Positions 5,606 through 17,125 of a stretch of 64,000 bases of DNA are shown here, piece after piece. This DNA is from Patescibacteria group bacterium. GTDB taxonomy: Bacteria > Patescibacteriota > Minisyncoccia > Phycocordibacterales > Phycocordibacteraceae. The position numbers were made by a program, and so were the translations under genes. The stretch is from assembly GCA_018971265.1 (NCBI GenBank), contig JAGXBE010000001.1, positions 1,051 to 65,050 of the forward strand, given 5' to 3'. The notes beneath the pieces are model-generated. The model searched no databases. It worked only from the letters and a program-made list of their open reading frames with translations, and was not told the DNA's origin. Positions within the stretch are counted from its first letter, which is position 1; each line of letters starts with the position of its first letter.

Positions 5606-5621
5606 TATATACTTACGTTAT

Positions 5622-6158
5622 ATGAAACCAACCCAGACTGGAATCGCTGTTGCGCTTGCGCTCGTCGTGATCGCGGCGTTCTTTATTTTCCCGGGCCTTT
5701 TGCCCTTCACTTCGTCGGGCGCGGTCGGGACCGAGACGCCTGTTACTAACAATAATGACACGAACGTGCAAACAGCATCTGCCACAGCATCTACCGAATC
5801 TGCCGGTACACCTCCGGTTACGCAGCTTACGGTGACTGACGAAGTCGTCGGTACAGGCGCCACTGCGGTAGCGGGCGACAGTGTAACAGTTAACTATGTC
5901 GGCGCTCTGACTAACGGTACCGTTTTCGATGCCTCCGCCAATCACGGGACTTCCGGCTTTACCTTCACGCTCGGCGCGGGACAGGTCATTAAAGGATGGG
6001 ACGAGGGCATCGTCGGTATGAAAGTGGGCGGCAAGCGAAAGCTCATCATCCCCGCTTCGCTCGCGTACGGCAACCAAGCAATCGGGAACATAATCCCGGC
6101 AAACTCAACTCTTGTTTTCGAAGTTGAGCTTTTAAAGGTACAGACGCAGGGTAAGTAA
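5622..6158 (+). CDS. FKBP-type peptidyl-prolyl cis-trans isomerase, membrane-anchored or secreted
   Basis: N-terminal TM/signal (IAVALALVVIAAFFIF). FKBP core motifs are VTVNYVGALTNGTVFDAS, GAGQVIKGWDEGIVGMKVGGKRKLIIP and LVFEVELL. Confidence 0.8.
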   Translation: MKPTQTGIAVALALVVIAAFFIFPGLLPFTSSGAVGTETPVTNNNDTNVQTASATASTESAGTPPVTQLTVTDEVVGTGATAVAGDSVTVNYVGALTNGTVFDASANHGTSGFTFTLGAGQVIKGWDEGIVGMKVGGKRKLIIPASLAYGNQAIGNIIPANSTLVFEVELLKVQTQGK

Positions 6159-6267
6159 AAGCTTGCGTTTCTATCAGTAATGTGCTATAAGATTTACTGG
6201 TAAGTAACGGTCTTTTGTATGCCTTGCCCGAGGGTTTGTCGGGTGCACAAGAAAGGAAGGGGTCATT

Positions 6268-6861
6268 ATGATCTCCAGGTTGGTTGCGCGAATCACTCTT
6301 GCGAGTATGCCTCTCTTGCTCGGGGCGTGCGCCTCGATGTCATCTTTCAACGGGTATGTTTCGGCGTCATCCGAAGATGCGAAGAAAGTGGAGCATGGCG
6401 GGTACTCTGATGCGGCGACGGCGCAAATTGCCGTTGTACAGAACCCGGATTTCAACGGCGGCAGAATCTCCCCGCGGGCGCTGAAGAAAATACAGGAATA
6501 CTCGATCTCCTGTCAGCGGCAGATCGACGTACAGCTCGCGGGTGCCGGACAATCCGGGGTGAACGGTGCCGTGCCCTACGGCGTTGCGGGACTCGGTGTC
6601 GGCCCCGCCGCAAAAGCTGCGTTTGCGGGGGCAAGCATGCACGCATACGCGCTCTACGGCGGCATCGCGTATCTCTTGCCGGGTGCAGTGAACGGCCTCA
6701 TCACGGGTTCCTACGCCATGGCATCGGCGAAAGGGACGTGTACGCGCGATTTCTGGGAAGACGTGGTTCACACGGATCCGGATTTCCGCGGCACGCACGT
6801 CGTGGTGGTGTACGCCGGGAAGGCATTCGGTAATTCCATGCCTCCGGCGCTCAAGAAATAG
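6268..6861 (+). CDS. putative lipoprotein (hypothetical)
   Basis: Signal peptide ending in the lipobox LLGAC. Gly/Ala-rich mature region. One of the few genes with an AGGAAGGGG SD-like motif upstream. Confidence 0.55.
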   Translation: MISRLVARITLASMPLLLGACASMSSFNGYVSASSEDAKKVEHGGYSDAATAQIAVVQNPDFNGGRISPRALKKIQEYSISCQRQIDVQLAGAGQSGVNGAVPYGVAGLGVGPAAKAAFAGASMHAYALYGGIAYLLPGAVNGLITGSYAMASAKGTCTRDFWEDVVHTDPDFRGTHVVVVYAGKAFGNSMPPALKK

Positions 6862-6944: not shown

Positions 6945-8171
6945 GTGTACATGAGTTCGATTTCTTTCACCATAAAGAAGCGCGCGCTGGCGTGTGGCGC
7001 CCGTGCCGGTGTTCTCACAACGCCTCACGGAATCATCCATACGCCCGCTTTTGTGCCGGTCGGCACCAAGGCGGACGTAAAGGGCATCCTGCCGGATGCT
7101 CTGAGTCTGCTCGGTGCCGAGATGGTTCTTGCGAACACCTACCATCTCTATCTGCAGCCGGGTGAGGGAATAGTGCAGAAGGCGGGCGGACTTGCGAAAT
7201 TCATGAACTGGCAGGGTCCGACCATGACCGACTCGGGCGGCTTCCAGGTTTTCTCGCTTGGCGCCGCTTTTGGAAAGACCATCTCGAAATTCGTACAGGG
7301 CGATGCTCCGAGGGAAGAGGCGGTCGCCGTCTATGACGAGAACGTTGCAAGCCAGCACGGTCAGCTCGCGGTCATCGATGAAGAAGGCGTTTCATTCACT
7401 TCTCATCTCGACGGCTCGCTTCATCGCTTCACACCGGAGCGTTCCGTCGAGATACAACACGCGCTCGGCGCGGATATTTTCTTTGCTTTTGATGAATGCA
7501 CTTCGCCAAACGAGCCGCATGACTACCAGAGGGAGGCGATGGAGCGCACGCATCGCTGGGCCGAACGCTCGCTGAAGACGCATCGGCAGAATCTTGAGGC
7601 GAAAAAGCGACAGGCACTCTTCGGTATCGTGCAAGGAGGGCGACACGAAGATTTGCGCAAAGAGTCCGCGCGCGCCATCGCCGCGCTTGGTTTCGATGGC
7701 ATCGGCATCGGCGGTTCGTTCAGCAAAGAGGACATGCGGGGCGCGCTTGCGGCCGCGGTAGGGGAGCTACCGGAAGAGCTTCCTCGGCACTTCCTCGGCA
7801 TTGGCGAGCCGGGCGATATCCTCGAGGGCATTGCGCATGGCATGGATCTTTTTGATTGCGTCGCGGCGACGCGTATCGGGCGGCACGGTTCCATTTACAC
7901 GCGCCGCGGCATCATCCACCTCACGGGCGAGAAGTTTAAGGATGACTTCGACCCGCTTGATCCCGAAATCGGTATCGCCGGCACGGAGAATTTCACGCGT
8001 GCGTACGTGGCGCACCTCATCCGCGCCAAAGAGATGCTCGGCTCGGTGATCTGTTCAATGCATAACGTCGGCTTCATTCTCGACCTCGTCAAGGGTGCGC
8101 GCCAAGCAATCGTCGATGGACGATTCGACGAATATCGTGCAGACTTTGTGCGCACGTACTACCGCTCATGA
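6945..8171 (+). CDS. tgt: queuine tRNA-ribosyltransferase
   Basis: TPHGIIHTPAFVPVGT, ANTYHLYLQPG and WQGPTMTDSGGFQVFSLG all match Tgt. An alternative start lies two codons downstream. Confidence 0.85.
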   Translation: MYMSSISFTIKKRALACGARAGVLTTPHGIIHTPAFVPVGTKADVKGILPDALSLLGAEMVLANTYHLYLQPGEGIVQKAGGLAKFMNWQGPTMTDSGGFQVFSLGAAFGKTISKFVQGDAPREEAVAVYDENVASQHGQLAVIDEEGVSFTSHLDGSLHRFTPERSVEIQHALGADIFFAFDECTSPNEPHDYQREAMERTHRWAERSLKTHRQNLEAKKRQALFGIVQGGRHEDLRKESARAIAALGFDGIGIGGSFSKEDMRGALAAAVGELPEELPRHFLGIGEPGDILEGIAHGMDLFDCVAATRIGRHGSIYTRRGIIHLTGEKFKDDFDPLDPEIGIAGTENFTRAYVAHLIRAKEMLGSVICSMHNVGFILDLVKGARQAIVDGRFDEYRADFVRTYYRS

Positions 8172-14692: not shown

Positions 14693-15655
14693 ATGCAAAC
14701 TATCGTCGGCGTGCTGCGTGGCGGGCCGTCGCGCGAACATGAAGTCTCGCTCAAGACGGGTGCGGCCATTCTCGCAAATCTGCCTGAAGACCAATTTCTC
14801 GCGCGTGACATTTATATCGATAAAAATGGCGGGTGGCATGATCGCGGGCGCCCAACCGCGCCCGATCGCGTGTTGCGCCAGCTCGATGTTATTCTCATCG
14901 GTCTTCATGGTGAATACGGCGAGGACGGGGGCGTCCAGAAACTGCTCGACCGGTTCGGGGTCCCCTATGCCGGCGCGGATTCCTTCGGTTCGTATCTCGC
15001 GATGCACAAGCTCATGGCAAAAGTGCGCGCGCAAGAGACAGGGCTCTTCACACCGAAGTTCCGGCACATCGAGCGTGTCGCGGATGCCGAGGCGGCAGTA
15101 CGCGAGATCATCCGTGCCTTCCCGCAGCCGGTTGTCGTGAAGCCGGTCGGTTGGGGTTCATCGATCGGTGTTTCCATCGTGGGCGGGTATGCGCCGGTAC
15201 TCGCCGCAATCGAAGGACTTTTTACCGAAGGCGCGCCGAGTGTCCTCGTTGAGGAATATATCCGAGGTCGAGAAGCGACGGTGGGAGTCGTTGAAAAGCT
15301 CAGGAACAAACCGCTTTACGTACTTCCAACAATCGAAATAATACCGCGGAAGGGAAATTTCTTTTCGTATGCCGCCAAATATTCCGGCGAAACACGCGAG
15401 ATTTGTCCGGGCAATTTCTCTCGCGTCGTGACGGAAGAGCTTCAAAAAGCAGCGGAAATAATGCACCGCGCCCTTGGCCTAAGGCATTACTCGCGCACGG
15501 ATTTTCTTATCGCACCGAAAGGCGTGTATTACCTGGAGACCAACACATTGCCAGGCCTTACCGAGGAATCTCTCCTACCGAAATCACTCGCTGCAGTCGG
15601 CGTTTCGTTTCCAGACTTCCTCTCACATCTGGTCAATCTTGCGCTCACGCGGTAG
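14693..15655 (+). CDS. ddl: D-alanine--D-alanine ligase
   Basis: MQTIVGVLRGGPSREHEVSLKTG and ATP-grasp motifs. Start chosen at 14693 rather than the upstream in-frame ATG at 14636. Confidence 0.85.
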   Translation: MQTIVGVLRGGPSREHEVSLKTGAAILANLPEDQFLARDIYIDKNGGWHDRGRPTAPDRVLRQLDVILIGLHGEYGEDGGVQKLLDRFGVPYAGADSFGSYLAMHKLMAKVRAQETGLFTPKFRHIERVADAEAAVREIIRAFPQPVVVKPVGWGSSIGVSIVGGYAPVLAAIEGLFTEGAPSVLVEEYIRGREATVGVVEKLRNKPLYVLPTIEIIPRKGNFFSYAAKYSGETREICPGNFSRVVTEELQKAAEIMHRALGLRHYSRTDFLIAPKGVYYLETNTLPGLTEESLLPKSLAAVGVSFPDFLSHLVNLALTR

Positions 15656-15666
15656 AGTTTCTGCAG

Positions 15667-15739
15667 GGGCCGTTAGCTCAGTTGGTAGAGCACCTCGTTT
15701 GCAACGAGGGGGTCGCAGGTTCGAATCCTGTACGGTCCA
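15667..15739 (+). tRNA. tRNA-Ala (anticodon TGC)
   Basis: Cloverleaf folded by hand. Acceptor GGGCCGT with a G3:U70 pair (Ala identity element), anticodon loop TTTGCAA, T-loop TTCGAAT. Confidence 0.8.
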
Positions 15740-15789
15740 CAGAGCGAGAAAAAGTCGGATTATAGCACCGGCTTTTTCTTGCTTTGTGG

Positions 15790-15824
15790 CGGCGGATGTA
15801 CAGGATTCGAACCGATACGGTCCA
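15790..15824 (+). other. degenerate duplicate of the tRNA-Ala(TGC) 3' end (tRNA fragment)
   Basis: ggatgtacaggattcgaaccgatacggtcca shares TACGGTCCA and TTCGAA with the Ala 3' end located 50 nt upstream. It cannot fold as a T-arm. Confidence 0.4.
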
Positions 15825-15855
15825 TCTATCTTTTTATGTTATCCTGCTACAGTTC

Positions 15856-16042
15856 GCGCTCTTAGCTCAGTTGGTTAGAGCAGTTCGTTCACCCCGTTAG
15901 ATAATTGGGCGGTTAGCTCAGTTGGTTAGAGCGTACGCTTCACACGCGTAAGGTCACAGGTCCGATTCCTGTACCGCCCACCGGGTGTTATCTAACGGGG
16001 CAAGCACGCGAAAGGTCAGGGGTTCGAATCCCTTAGAGCGCA
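15856..16042 (+). ncRNA. Val-like tRNA gene split into 5' and 3' halves by a 135-nt insert that itself contains tRNA-Val(CAC); the halves are bridged by a 13-bp inverted repeat
   Basis: The 5' half gcgctct/ta/gctc-agttggttag-agc...gttcgttcac is complementary at the acceptor to the 3' end agagcgc, with T-arm aggggttcgaatccctt. Between them, ccccgttagataa (15892-15904) and ttatctaacgggg (15988-16000) are perfect reverse complements bracketing the inner tRNA. The outer anticodon stem pairs poorly as written. Confidence 0.35.
15907..15980 (+). tRNA. tRNA-Val (anticodon CAC), nested inside the split Val-like gene
   Basis: Acceptor GGGCGGT/ACCGCCC, D-arm tagctcagttggttagagc, anticodon stem tacgc/gcgta with loop TTCACAC, T-arm acagg-tccgatt-cctgt. 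Confidence 0.8.
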
Positions 16043-16061
16043 CACGGGAGGTGTTCTGTGT

Positions 16062-16133
16062 CGGGCCGGAGTATGCCGGTAGTACGCACGCTTCGGGTGC
16101 GTGTAGACCGGGTTCAATTCCCGGCGGCCCGAC
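16062..16133 (+). tRNA. tRNA-Pro (anticodon CGG)
   Basis: Acceptor CGGGCCG/CGGCCCG with C1:G72, anticodon stem cacgc/gcgtg with loop TTCGGGT, T-arm ccggg-ttcaatt-cccgg. Flanked by 11-bp direct repeats gaggtgttctg at 16048-16058 and 16153-16163. Confidence 0.8.
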
Positions 16134-16305
16134 AAAGAACATCTCTCGAAGAGAGGTGTTCTGGACCGCCAGGAATTGAGGGCCGGAGCGCGACGGCGTG
16201 AGGCGGGGTCGCGCAACACTCACAACGGGCTATAAGCAAAGCTTTCGTCTCCGTTGTTCCGGAGAGAATAATCATAGGAAGACTTGTGTTACTCTTCCTC
16301 CACAA

Positions 16306-16376
16306 CGGGCTATAGTATACCGGTAGTACGCATGCATGGGGTGCATGTAGACCGGGTTCGATTCCCGGTAGCCCGA
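16306..16376 (+). tRNA. tRNA-Pro (anticodon GGG)
   Basis: Acceptor CGGGCTA/TAGCCCG, anticodon stem catgc/gcatg with loop ATGGGGT, T-arm ccggg-ttcgatt-cccgg. Its first 14 nt (cacaacgggctata) are repeated at 16221-16234. Confidence 0.7.
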
Positions 16377-16461
16377 AAGTAGCGAAGCGAGGTAAGGAAT
16401 GGGAACGCGGAACGTTCGCCCGGGAATCGAAGGTCGGAAGGGTGAATTTTATTTTTCCGCG

Positions 16462-16470
16462 TGATAAAAT
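16462..16470 (+). promoter_or_regulatory. extended -10 box TGATAAAAT 9 nt upstream of tRNA-Ala(CGC)
   Basis: TGnTAnnAT motif seen in the sequence. Confidence 0.35.
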
Positions 16471-16479
16471 CGTCCCTAT

Positions 16480-16552
16480 GGGCCATTAGCTCAGTTGGTA
16501 GAGCGCGTCATTCGCATTGACGAGGTCAGGAGTTCGACTCTCCTATGGTCCA
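16480..16552 (+). tRNA. tRNA-Ala (anticodon CGC)
   Basis: Acceptor GGGCCAT/ATGGTCC with G3:U70, anticodon stem cgtca/tgacg with loop TTCGCAT, T-loop TTCGACT. Confidence 0.8.
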
Positions 16553-16561
16553 CCGTGCTTC

Positions 16562-16632
16562 GGGCCTATAGTTCAGCGGTAGAACGCGTCCATGGCATGG
16601 ACGAGGTCGGGGTCCGACTCCCCGTAGGTCCA
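16562..16632 (+). tRNA. tRNA-Ala (anticodon GGC)
   Basis: Acceptor GGGCCTA/TAGGTCC with G3:U70, anticodon stem cgtcc/ggacg with loop ATGGCAT. Confidence 0.75.
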
Positions 16633-16723
16633 CAAAATTAACGAGCCGTAATCGGCGATTATAATTTTGTAGGATATCGAGGTATTCCGAGGCGCCACAA
16701 ACAAAAAGTGTTACTATAATTTC

Positions 16724-17125
16724 ATGCTAAAAGAATTTAGACAATTTTTACTTCGCGGAAATGTCGTCGATCTGGCGGTTGGCGTCGTAGTCGGCGCAGC
16801 ATTCGGCACAGTTGTATCAGCTCTCGTCTCTGATCTCTTAACCCCGCTTATCGGCGCGGTCGCTAAAGTCCCTGACTTTAGCAAACTCTCGTTCACCCTC
16901 AACGGAAGCACATTCATGTATGGCCACCTCTTTAACGCGCTCATTTCTTTCGTTCTTGTCGCCGGCGCCGTTTTCTTTTTTGTGGTGAAGCCGATGAATT
17001 TGCTCGTTGCGCATTCGCGCACGGAAGCGCCGGCCGATCCGACAACCAGGAAATGTCCGGAATGCATGAGCGAGATTCCAATCAATGCGAAGCGCTGCAT
17101 GTACTGCACGCAAACCGTTGCTTGA
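16724..17125 (+). CDS. mscL: large-conductance mechanosensitive channel with a C-terminal zinc-ribbon-like tail
   Basis: MLKEFRQFLLRGNVVDLAVGVVVGAAFG is the MscL signature. The C-terminus ends KCPECMSEIPINAKRCMYC (CxxC...CxxC) instead of the usual helical bundle. TATAAT box at 16715-16720. Confidence 0.85.
   Translation: MLKEFRQFLLRGNVVDLAVGVVVGAAFGTVVSALVSDLLTPLIGAVAKVPDFSKLSFTLNGSTFMYGHLFNALISFVLVAGAVFFFVVKPMNLLVAHSRTEAPADPTTRKCPECMSEIPINAKRCMYCTQTVA

Follow-up and report, generated by a model that had tools for sequence, protein, structure and literature searches.

The nested tRNA-Val(CAC) locus

In a 64-kb stretch of the genome of a Kaiserbacteria-like patescibacterium, referred to below as the window, a complete tRNA-Val(CAC) gene is enclosed by the two parts of a second Val(CAC) gene (15856–15887/91 and 16005–16042). 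The most probable explanation, in our view, is that a non-autonomous palindromic mobile element with a tRNA as its passenger has split the resident Val(CAC) gene and replaced it. We propose more tentatively that the element belongs to a class that has not been described, a hairpin 'tRNA cassette' that invades a cognate tRNA gene and obligatorily replaces it. The nesting itself had been pointed out in an earlier note made from the sequence alone, and all of the features listed there are present.

The inner tRNA, the cargo, lies on the forward strand at 15907–15980, where it is called by ARAGORN and matches Rfam RF00005 with a score of 69.5 bits (E 4e-13; end at 15980/82). It has the acceptor stem GGGCGGT/ACCGCCC, discriminator A and an incompletely encoded CCA, and it is the sole intact Val(CAC) gene at the locus. 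The 5' part of the outer, resident gene (15856–15887, forward strand) reads GCGCTCT-TA-GCTCAGTTGGTTAGAGC and comprises the acceptor 5' strand, the D-arm and a damaged anticodon-stem strand; repeat analysis showed that a 20-nt D-arm segment is the same in this part and in the inner tRNA. The 3' part (16005–16042, forward strand) contains C36-A37-C38, GCGAA, the variable loop, the T-arm, AGAGCGC and A73, reading ...GCGAA-AGGTC-AGGGGTTCGAATCCCTT-AGAGCGC-A, and its acceptor strand is fully complementary to that of the 5' part.

The whole inserted element occupies 15888–16004 on the same strand and is 117 nt long, or 113 nt if its first four nucleotides are assigned to the host loop. It opens with TTCA (15888–15891) and closes with CAAG (16001–16004), the left and right termini of the element family described below, which are conserved across frames. 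Immediately inside these termini lie the arms of the inverted repeat, CCCCGTTAGATAA (15892–15904) and TTATCTAACGGGG (15988–16000), which are complementary at 13/13 positions, as the earlier note had stated. At this locus TTCA coincides with U32–A35 of the Val(CAC) anticodon loop, so that its origin here is ambiguous; the sequence that the earlier note read as the outer anticodon loop is indeed there, but its TTCA is the conserved terminus of an element. [quoted passage not shown]

Folding of the RNA from 15850–16050 gave –76.3 kcal/mol (z = –3.96), and none of 200 shuffled sequences was as stable. The outer acceptor stem is closed in this structure and the repeat helix carries the inner cloverleaf, in agreement with the suggestion that a helix would bring the two halves together. 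Both the minimum free energy (MFE) and the centroid fold place GUU/AGC first, then a symmetric 2x2 CA/CA internal loop and then the 13-bp repeat. Upstream of the outer tRNA by 11–19 nt is a –10-like motif, TGTTATCCT (15837–15845, forward strand), at a position conserved in relatives, where TTGTTATCC, TGCTATCCT and TGGTATGGT are equally spaced upstream of an uninterrupted Val(CAC) gene. A scan for the sigma-70 consensus gave no match at 15837–15845; from its conserved spacing, TGTTATCCT is presumed to be the promoter, and would now drive the whole nested unit. The only –10-like sequence adjoining the inner gene is GATAAT (15899–15904), which cannot give a full-length inner tRNA because it is too near to +1.

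We next consider whether the outer gene could still produce a tRNA. It was not called by ARAGORN when introns were allowed. A splice at 35/36 or 36/37 gave 'tRNA-??? (caca)' with an 8-nt loop, which in the clean-splice product sits on a 4-bp stem, and removal of TTCA...CAAG resulted in no tRNA call at the default settings of the program. The 5' junction reads A-GTTCG-TTCA as against the G-TTCGC-TTCA of relatives and of the ancestral gene, and the anticodon stem is therefore broken; the poor pairing of GTTCG with GCGAA that the earlier note remarked upon is real. The outer gene is unable to give a canonical tRNA, and the idea that it represents a split or processed functional tRNA was not borne out. 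It is best read as a pseudogene made by insertion, with the inner tRNA predicted to be functional.

Comparison with 80 related loci identified the empty site. All of the Val(CAC) genes in these loci (41/41) are single and uninterrupted, rather than the plain tandem Val pair that the earlier note had raised as an alternative, and the insert is missing from the orthologous site in about 40 relatives. In three of them (L002, L038 and L045) the continuous gene spans GCGCTCT...GTTCGCTTCACACGCGAA...AGAGCGC, and reads GCGCTCTTAGCTCAGTTGGTTAGAGC-G-TTCGC-TTCACAC-GCGAA-AGGTC-AGGGGTTCGAATCCCTT-AGAGCGC-A. The outer gene matches this sequence with 100% identity in its first 26 nt and its last 39 nt, and the tRNA-Pro leader downstream of Val(CAC) is common to the window, L002 and L038. 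Since the gene of the relatives is uninterrupted and matches both halves, we conclude that what is now the outer gene was the ancestral resident Val(CAC), and that the 113–117 nt are a recent insertion into its anticodon loop, absent from relatives. An uninterrupted ortholog together with loss of the canonical structure is what characterises a tRNA pseudogene formed by insertion, the possibility towards which the earlier note had leaned.

The inner tRNA is not a copy of the gene that it interrupts, because its acceptor is foreign to close relatives and its body is nearest to that of other Kaiserbacteria-like genomes. The acceptor GGGCGGT/ACCGCCC was found in no close relative, occurring only in distant ones (L049, L051), whereas positions 7–67 are 98% identical to the resident Val(CAC) of the Kaiserbacteria-like locus L035 (also L030 and L029). 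Inner and outer genes differ at three acceptor base pairs, in the anticodon stem and in the T-arm. The exact 13-mer of the repeat has no second copy in the 64-kb window (allowing up to 2 mismatches) or in the 80 related loci.

An element family with shared termini and junctions

Metagenome contigs were scanned for two copies of a D-arm motif 18–46 nt apart, a spacing chosen as the signal because it is too close for two whole tRNAs, giving at least 120 loci (among all loci of the analysis, only those derived from GTDB are named as Patescibacteria). There were at least 130 pattern matches. Of the 130 listed, at least 112 have a complete inner tRNA, at least 70 an exact flanking inverted repeat of 7 nt or more and at least 67 a matching outer 3' acceptor strand; all three features coincide in at least 53.

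At least 22 distinct frames share the termini found in the window and have the form TTCA[CT]CC...helix...cargo...helix...GG[GA]CA[AGT][GA] (family A). Across the loci there are at least 26 frames, in Val, Met and Ile genes, in a T-stem, in a D-loop and in uvrC. Among the matches listed, TTCA is invariant in 22/22 distinct family A frames, and the CA of the right terminus is invariant in 21, as CAAG (14), CAGG (5), CAGA (1) or CATG (1). In Met, Ile and Val(GAC/TAC) hosts, where it forms no part of the loop, TTCA likewise stands before the helix. The architecture and the termini TTCA-CCC...GGG-CAAG recur in many other tRNA genes.

While the termini are conserved, the helix sequences of family A are diverse (CCCCGTTAGATAA, CCCCGTTAAAT, CCCTGTTAAAT, CCCCGCACCAA, CCCGCCAAAAATTTT, CCCCGTACCAAA and others) and they covary: 88.6% of cells are paired compared with 65.4% in shuffles, both sides change in 10/12 pairs, and sliding the partner by one column reduces pairing to about 51% or less. 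Among the matches listed, the nearest match of the window element is the element in L116, with 89% identity across a 94-nt stretch that takes in the left terminus, the left arm and the cargo, and the element in L174 has the same arm core, CCCCGTTAGAT. With respect to cargo and host, frames may lie in either orientation (that of L202 is reversed), and their contents differ. A cargo-less 41-nt hairpin copy lies in reverse orientation in the T-stem of the outermost tRNA-Ile of L110, and a copy in L140, at the TG of a D-loop, carries 65 nt of cargo. The uvrC gene of a Paceibacteria-like metagenome-assembled genome (MAG; L061) contains three palindromes (1621–1661, 1672–1697 and 1815–1851) with its reading frame unbroken, and the first of these (1621–1661) is a cargo-less family A copy.

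The host bases lost at each junction can be read off where the outer and inner anticodon arms are alike. In a Met(CAT) host the junction ct/TTCA...CAAG/taa corresponds to loss of C34 A35, and the same two positions are lost from the Val(CAC) host of L116, where it reads tt/TTCA...CAGA/cat. For Val(GAC) and Val(TAC) hosts the junction is ttga or ttta/TTCA...CAAG/t or c, with loss of C36 A37. The 3' part of an Ile(GAT) host starts at C32, and CA at 30–31 together with 3 more nt on the 5' side are missing. At the T-stem copy in L110 it is TG, which is CA on the other strand, that has been replaced. Wherever the target can be inferred, the D-loop copy in L140 included, CA is swapped for TTCA[...]CAAG and nothing is duplicated, and in family A generally excision would be unable to restore the anticodon loop. 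The 3' junction in the window, CAAG/CAC-GCGAA, is consistent with this rule; its 5' side fits the rule only with a 3-nt loss and one added A. Alternatively, the window may hold a clean 35/36 insertion with two 1-nt indels, a reading that is possible because TTCA also begins the Val(CAC) loop.

Insertions of this type are sometimes layered. In L110, L200 and L162 there are three tRNA-Ile(GAT) layers: a hairpin family interrupts the outermost gene and brings in a second gene, which is in turn split by family A with an intact third. (The three-layer unit of L110 is at about 7225–7640 of the reverse complement, on the minus strand, and in L162 a unit of 5' half plus left arm is tandemly duplicated.) Similar layering followed by later rearrangement is seen in L135 and L101. 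Other repeat families also give the layout half – repeat – whole tRNA – repeat – half, some of them as clean insertions at 35/36 or 37/38 (L109, L180, L192 and L165), and in L135 and in L146 (Phe) the whole anticodon loop is replaced by a helix that continues the anticodon stem. Nested tRNAs also occur in genomes named as Kaiserbacteria or Parcubacteria, as Pro(GGG) within Pro(GGG) (L036, about 6090–6390, minus strand), Pro(CGG) within a Pro gene (L047, about 5650–5930) and Ala(TGC) lodged in the D-loop of another Ala(TGC) gene (L045, about 1670–1930), and the flanking repeat differs in each.

Fifty-six nested pairs among the matches listed (L083–L202 and the window) were compared. Host and cargo share their amino-acid type in nearly all cases. 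The 5' anticodon-arm strands of outer and inner tRNA are identical in 22/56 pairs and the acceptor stems in just 6/56, while the T-arms are sometimes identical (L129, L193).

Two further arrangements were seen in the same contigs. A 20-nt perfect palindrome, CCTGCCTGCCGGCAGGCAGG, is present in the decaying outer 3' halves of tRNAs in the unrelated contigs L182 and L194, and frames related to it, CCTGCCCG...CGGGCAGG, bound the clean 35/36 insertions of L180 and L192. In L088, L097, L104, L112, L167, L184, L186 and others, a tRNA-like 5' two-thirds with an odd anticodon loop stands directly upstream of a complete tRNA, and there is no flanking inverted repeat. HNH endonuclease open reading frames (ORFs) were found near tRNAs in L123, L154, L181, L191 and L198, which suggests that these are phage tRNA clusters.

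How the element may work, and competing explanations

On the reading that we favour, an element of ~117 bp with hairpin ends and no ORF would have entered the anticodon loop of the resident Val(CAC), destroying the gene, with a complete tRNA-Val(CAC) of foreign type riding in its hairpin loop. The nested unit would be transcribed from the old promoter of the outer gene, and the 13-bp repeat, together with GUU/AGC across the CA/CA loop, would keep the inner tRNA apart from outer halves that nearly match it. The inner tRNA could then be freed by RNase P and 3'-end enzymes, perhaps once RNase III had cut the helix, and would need CCA to be added, after which it would decode GUG codons and the outer halves would be discarded. 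An insertion into an essential tRNA gene would survive only through replacement by its passenger, and the simplest explanation for the shared amino-acid type of host and cargo is that only a replaced essential tRNA is tolerated. On the more tentative cassette reading, successive invasions would leave Russian-doll fossils, and the host would come to depend on the tRNA of the element. Targeting may be guided by homology to the cargo, a possibility left open by the finding that cargo and host usually share the anticodon arm and not the acceptor stem; the difference in acceptor stem may in turn have been selected so that the precursor folds correctly.

As the mover we favour a recombinase or transposase acting in trans on hairpin DNA. 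Several candidates were considered and set aside. The LAGLIDADG ORFs that we encountered are plausibly intron genes of rRNA operons, since tRNA-Ile(GAT) is commonly located in the rRNA spacer, and the HNH ORFs belong with the different, probably phage-like, partial-tRNA arrangement described above. A reverse transcriptase is present in three loci and has no convincing link to the elements. With respect to the site itself, the GTTRRRY core of integron attC-like sites fits the window copy and not the family, insertion of the IS200/IS605 type on the 3' side of a TTCA target would suit only the Val(CAC) hosts, and neither serine- or tyrosine-recombinase cores nor DDE transposition that duplicates 2 bp agrees with the junctions. 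Viral contigs contained no match to either the two-D-arm pattern or the exact repeat pair, and scanning them doubles as a negative control for the catalogue drawn from metagenomes. For the generic frame TTCACCCCG-N85-115-CGGGGCARG there were 73 matches in these contigs, of which none contains a tRNA and one has a repeat longer than 7 bp; these are chance matches. As they hold no tRNA and the repeat is not extended, they provide no evidence for a phage vector.

A number of observations weigh against the mobile-element reading. No transposase, integrase or other mobilising gene was found among the loci surveyed, clustering of the ORFs around nested tRNAs revealed no recurrent enzyme among the neighbours (which are mostly housekeeping genes such as RluD-like, L19 and PNPase), and a search of 1.3 Mb of loci for an ORF-bearing copy with the same ends, in spans of up to 4 kb, found none, returning only two unrelated ends 3.2 kb apart (L101/L136). 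A target-site duplication, which a MITE would be expected to have, was sought and not found, the flanks being unduplicated, and loss of 2 nt of target fits no standard transposition chemistry. There is one copy of the element within the 64-kb window, and its 5' junction needs +A26 and –C31, or a 3-nt loss, changes not accounted for by the insertion itself. Identical D-arms on one strand were a requirement of the pattern used on the metagenomes, which biases the sample towards pairs of the same type and orientation. Selection on an RNA helix is inseparable from selection on a DNA hairpin, because the helix mismatches are G-T in four cases and A-C in four. Finally, the families in L109, L180, L192 and L165 keep intact outer halves and may be spliced.

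The first alternative dispenses with a mobile element and attributes the structure to a local accident in the tRNA cluster, by duplication, gene conversion or illegitimate recombination. The cluster is rich in tRNA fragments, inverted T-arm pieces and short duplications, its Val-Pro block is inverted in some relatives, and the body of the inner tRNA is close to Val(CAC) genes of the same family. The sequence differences between inner and outer genes nevertheless show that the inner was not copied from the outer. Moreover, the junctions TTCA-CCCC and GGGG-CAAG, and the layout as a whole, recur in unrelated contigs and in other types of tRNA, and among the matches listed it is a further insert of this kind to which the insert is most closely related. 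We therefore regard a local accident as unlikely.

A true intron would require the 113–117-nt insert to be removed by a bacterial splicing activity or by self-splicing, giving two Val tRNAs. The insert lies at or beside 35/36, the site of validated group I introns in Patescibacteria (PMC13011429), and like them it ends in G (16004). The outer acceptor stem and T-arm are still perfect, the repeat would join the two halves, and some of the other insert families are clean with intact outer halves. Yet no intron family was found by an Rfam scan of 15400–16900 at E ≤ 10 (a group II fragment at 16107–16205, with 13.6 bits and E 5.7, is a chance-level match), and the non-tRNA part of the insert, only about 40 nt, is too small for a group I core. 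The 5' exon ends in A35 or C36 and not in U, and a bulge-helix-bulge (BHB) was sought at the junctions in the MFE and centroid folds and not found, the 2x2 CA/CA internal loop being there instead. Clean splicing leaves the defective anticodon arm described above. Most family members lack the CA, which in Met and Val(CAC) hosts belongs to the anticodon, so that the loop could not be restored, and outer halves elsewhere have acquired further insertions and deletions. An intron is thus very improbable, and the archaeal-like intron that the earlier note had put forward finds no support in the ARAGORN intron search, in Rfam or in the folds, and the host is a bacterium.

We give as little credence to a functional two-piece or scaffold RNA, in which the outer halves would stay paired and be kept for processing, for regulation or as a tRNA-like decoy. 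In its favour, no damage is seen in the acceptor stem, D-arm or T-arm of the outer gene, a stable structure is predicted, and the rarity of identical outer and inner acceptor stems among the matches listed would prevent mispairing. Against this, intactness at the window locus is expected from a recent insertion, and elsewhere the outer halves are variably truncated, re-invaded or missing, as neutral decay predicts. An assembly or binning chimera can be practically dismissed: although repeated tRNA sequence breaks assemblies and the contig of L082 ends inside the cluster, a second, independently assembled MAG (GCA_028865195.1, locus L081) is 99.7% identical to the window, with 17/6402 positions differing, and has an identical 1068-nt Ddl-MscL spacer, nested tRNA included, so that the structure is not an assembly artefact, and the same architecture is found in more than 50 independent contigs.

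Genomic context, related systems and implications

Upstream of the nested gene are uvrA, uvrC, ndk and ddl, and it is followed by mscL, a SWIB-domain gene and the atp operon. Relatives of Ddl that are 65–80% identical are found in MAGs named Kaiserbacteria, Paceibacterota, Parcubacteria or Patescibacteria, where ddl is followed by the cluster Ala(TGC)-Val(CAC)-Pro(CGG)-Pro(GGG)-Ala(CGC)-Ala(GGC) with variable spacing. The distance between Ala(TGC) and Val ranges from ~0.1 to 3 kb among relatives, and in L013, L015, L016, L029, L031 and L036 the Val-Pro block is turned round with respect to the Ala genes on either side. These tRNA genes downstream of ddl form a hot spot of rearrangement.

Further pairing elements and tRNA fragments are present in the window around the nested unit. 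A 22-bp hairpin (15737–15758/15768–15789) begins within the 3' end of tRNA-Ala(TGC) and is followed by a tRNA 3' fragment on the minus strand, which ends in CCA and whose T-arm (15798–15813) is complementary to Ala(TGC) at 16/16 positions. The leader and trailer of tRNA-Pro(CGG) (16062–16133) pair over 24 nt including the acceptor stem (16045–16068/16125–16148, 88%), and the trailer has an alternative hairpin, formed with the leader motif where this recurs (GAGGTGTTCTG, at 16048 and 16153), a motif conserved in L002, L008, L009, L012 and L035. An inverted T-arm fragment of tRNA-Pro is located at 16163–16179. A 14-nt direct repeat, CACAACGGGCTATA (16221 and 16301), consists of the leader and first 9 nt of tRNA-Pro(GGG) and is duplicated around a 66-nt insert, and another inverted T-arm fragment (16420–16431) lies downstream of tRNA-Pro(GGG); the region 16221–16431 looks like a decayed earlier invasion or rearrangement. 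In L034 (about 5620–5740) the leader of a non-nested tRNA-Ala pairs with its ACCA end and trailer over 15 nt.

The window element and its family resemble MITEs, Rickettsia palindromic elements (RPEs) and repetitive extragenic palindromic (REP) hairpins in being small and ORF-less, with ends that pair into a hairpin, and in having many diverged copies whose presence differs between relatives. Of the features that define MITEs, terminal repeats, multiple copies and an empty site (in L002, L038 and L045) were all observed, and no autonomous partner was found in the loci sampled. RPEs insert inside genes, in frame in the case of protein genes (PMC10969869), and the in-frame copies in the uvrC of L061 are alike in this respect. 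In contrast to MITEs and RPEs, the elements described here hold a complete tRNA gene in the hairpin loop, target tRNA genes of the same amino-acid type, replace CA with TTCA...CAAG without a target-site duplication, and have arm sequences that covary rather than being conserved. The word tRNA is absent from a 2024 review of MITEs (PMC10969869).

Integrase-type elements, among them phages, integrative and conjugative elements and archaeal plasmids, likewise target tRNA genes and compensate for the damage, and tRNA fragments are found beside the intact tRNA-Thr gene of Caldiarchaeum (PMC3293823). Such elements are kilobases long and encode a recombinase, neither of which applies to the window element, and they duplicate one part of the tRNA as a direct repeat to give the order intact gene – element – fragment. 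Here the order is half – whole gene – half with an inverted repeat: a different half of one gene stands on either side and an ORF is lacking, so that the locus does not have the form of an integrase island.

The nearest published neighbour is the group I introns at 35/36 of Patescibacteria tRNA genes, which have been validated experimentally (Nakagawa et al., 2026; PMC13011429). Only introns containing a ribozyme were sought in that study, which required a 5' exon ending in U and an intron ending in G. The two phenomena share the phylum and the anticodon-loop region, and in both the interrupted gene is missed by standard finders. They differ in that the present insert has no ribozyme core, does not follow a U-ended exon, fails to restore the loop on excision and carries a tRNA as cargo. 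Complementary flanks that unite tRNA halves are also a feature of archaeal BHB introns and split tRNAs (Nanoarchaeum, and the tri-split tRNAs of Caldivirga), and mobile tRNA introns of the Thermoproteales can move between tRNA genes (PMC10714607). The present case differs from these archaeal systems in its bacterial host, in the lack of a BHB, in halves that cannot be joined canonically and in an intervening sequence that is itself a tRNA.

A further parallel is provided by the intervening sequences of bacterial 23S rRNA, which are hairpin insertions in a structural RNA gene, and the window element is probably cut at its helix as they are. Those sequences are removed by RNase III without religation, and the fragmented rRNA still works. 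A tRNA cut in the anticodon loop, unlike fragmented rRNA, fails, and a replacement gene is therefore needed. Full-text literature searches found no tRNA gene nested in a bacterial tRNA gene and no MITE carrying a tRNA.

These loci have consequences for annotation, where each gives one tRNA call and hides the halves of the pseudogene, and where cargo-less copies in tRNA or protein genes can be mistaken for introns or frameshifts. The swap of CA for TTCA...CAAG points to an uncharacterised recombination chemistry, and the nested layers record the order of invasion. The splitting of tRNA genes has long been argued from the split and intron-containing tRNAs of archaea, and the arrangement described here offers a bacterial model for it at the level of DNA. 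If our reading is correct, Patescibacteria, with their reduced genomes, would have essential single-copy tRNA genes turned over by selfish DNA that brings its own replacement, which would constitute both a route by which tRNA genes are exchanged horizontally and a kind of genetic addiction.

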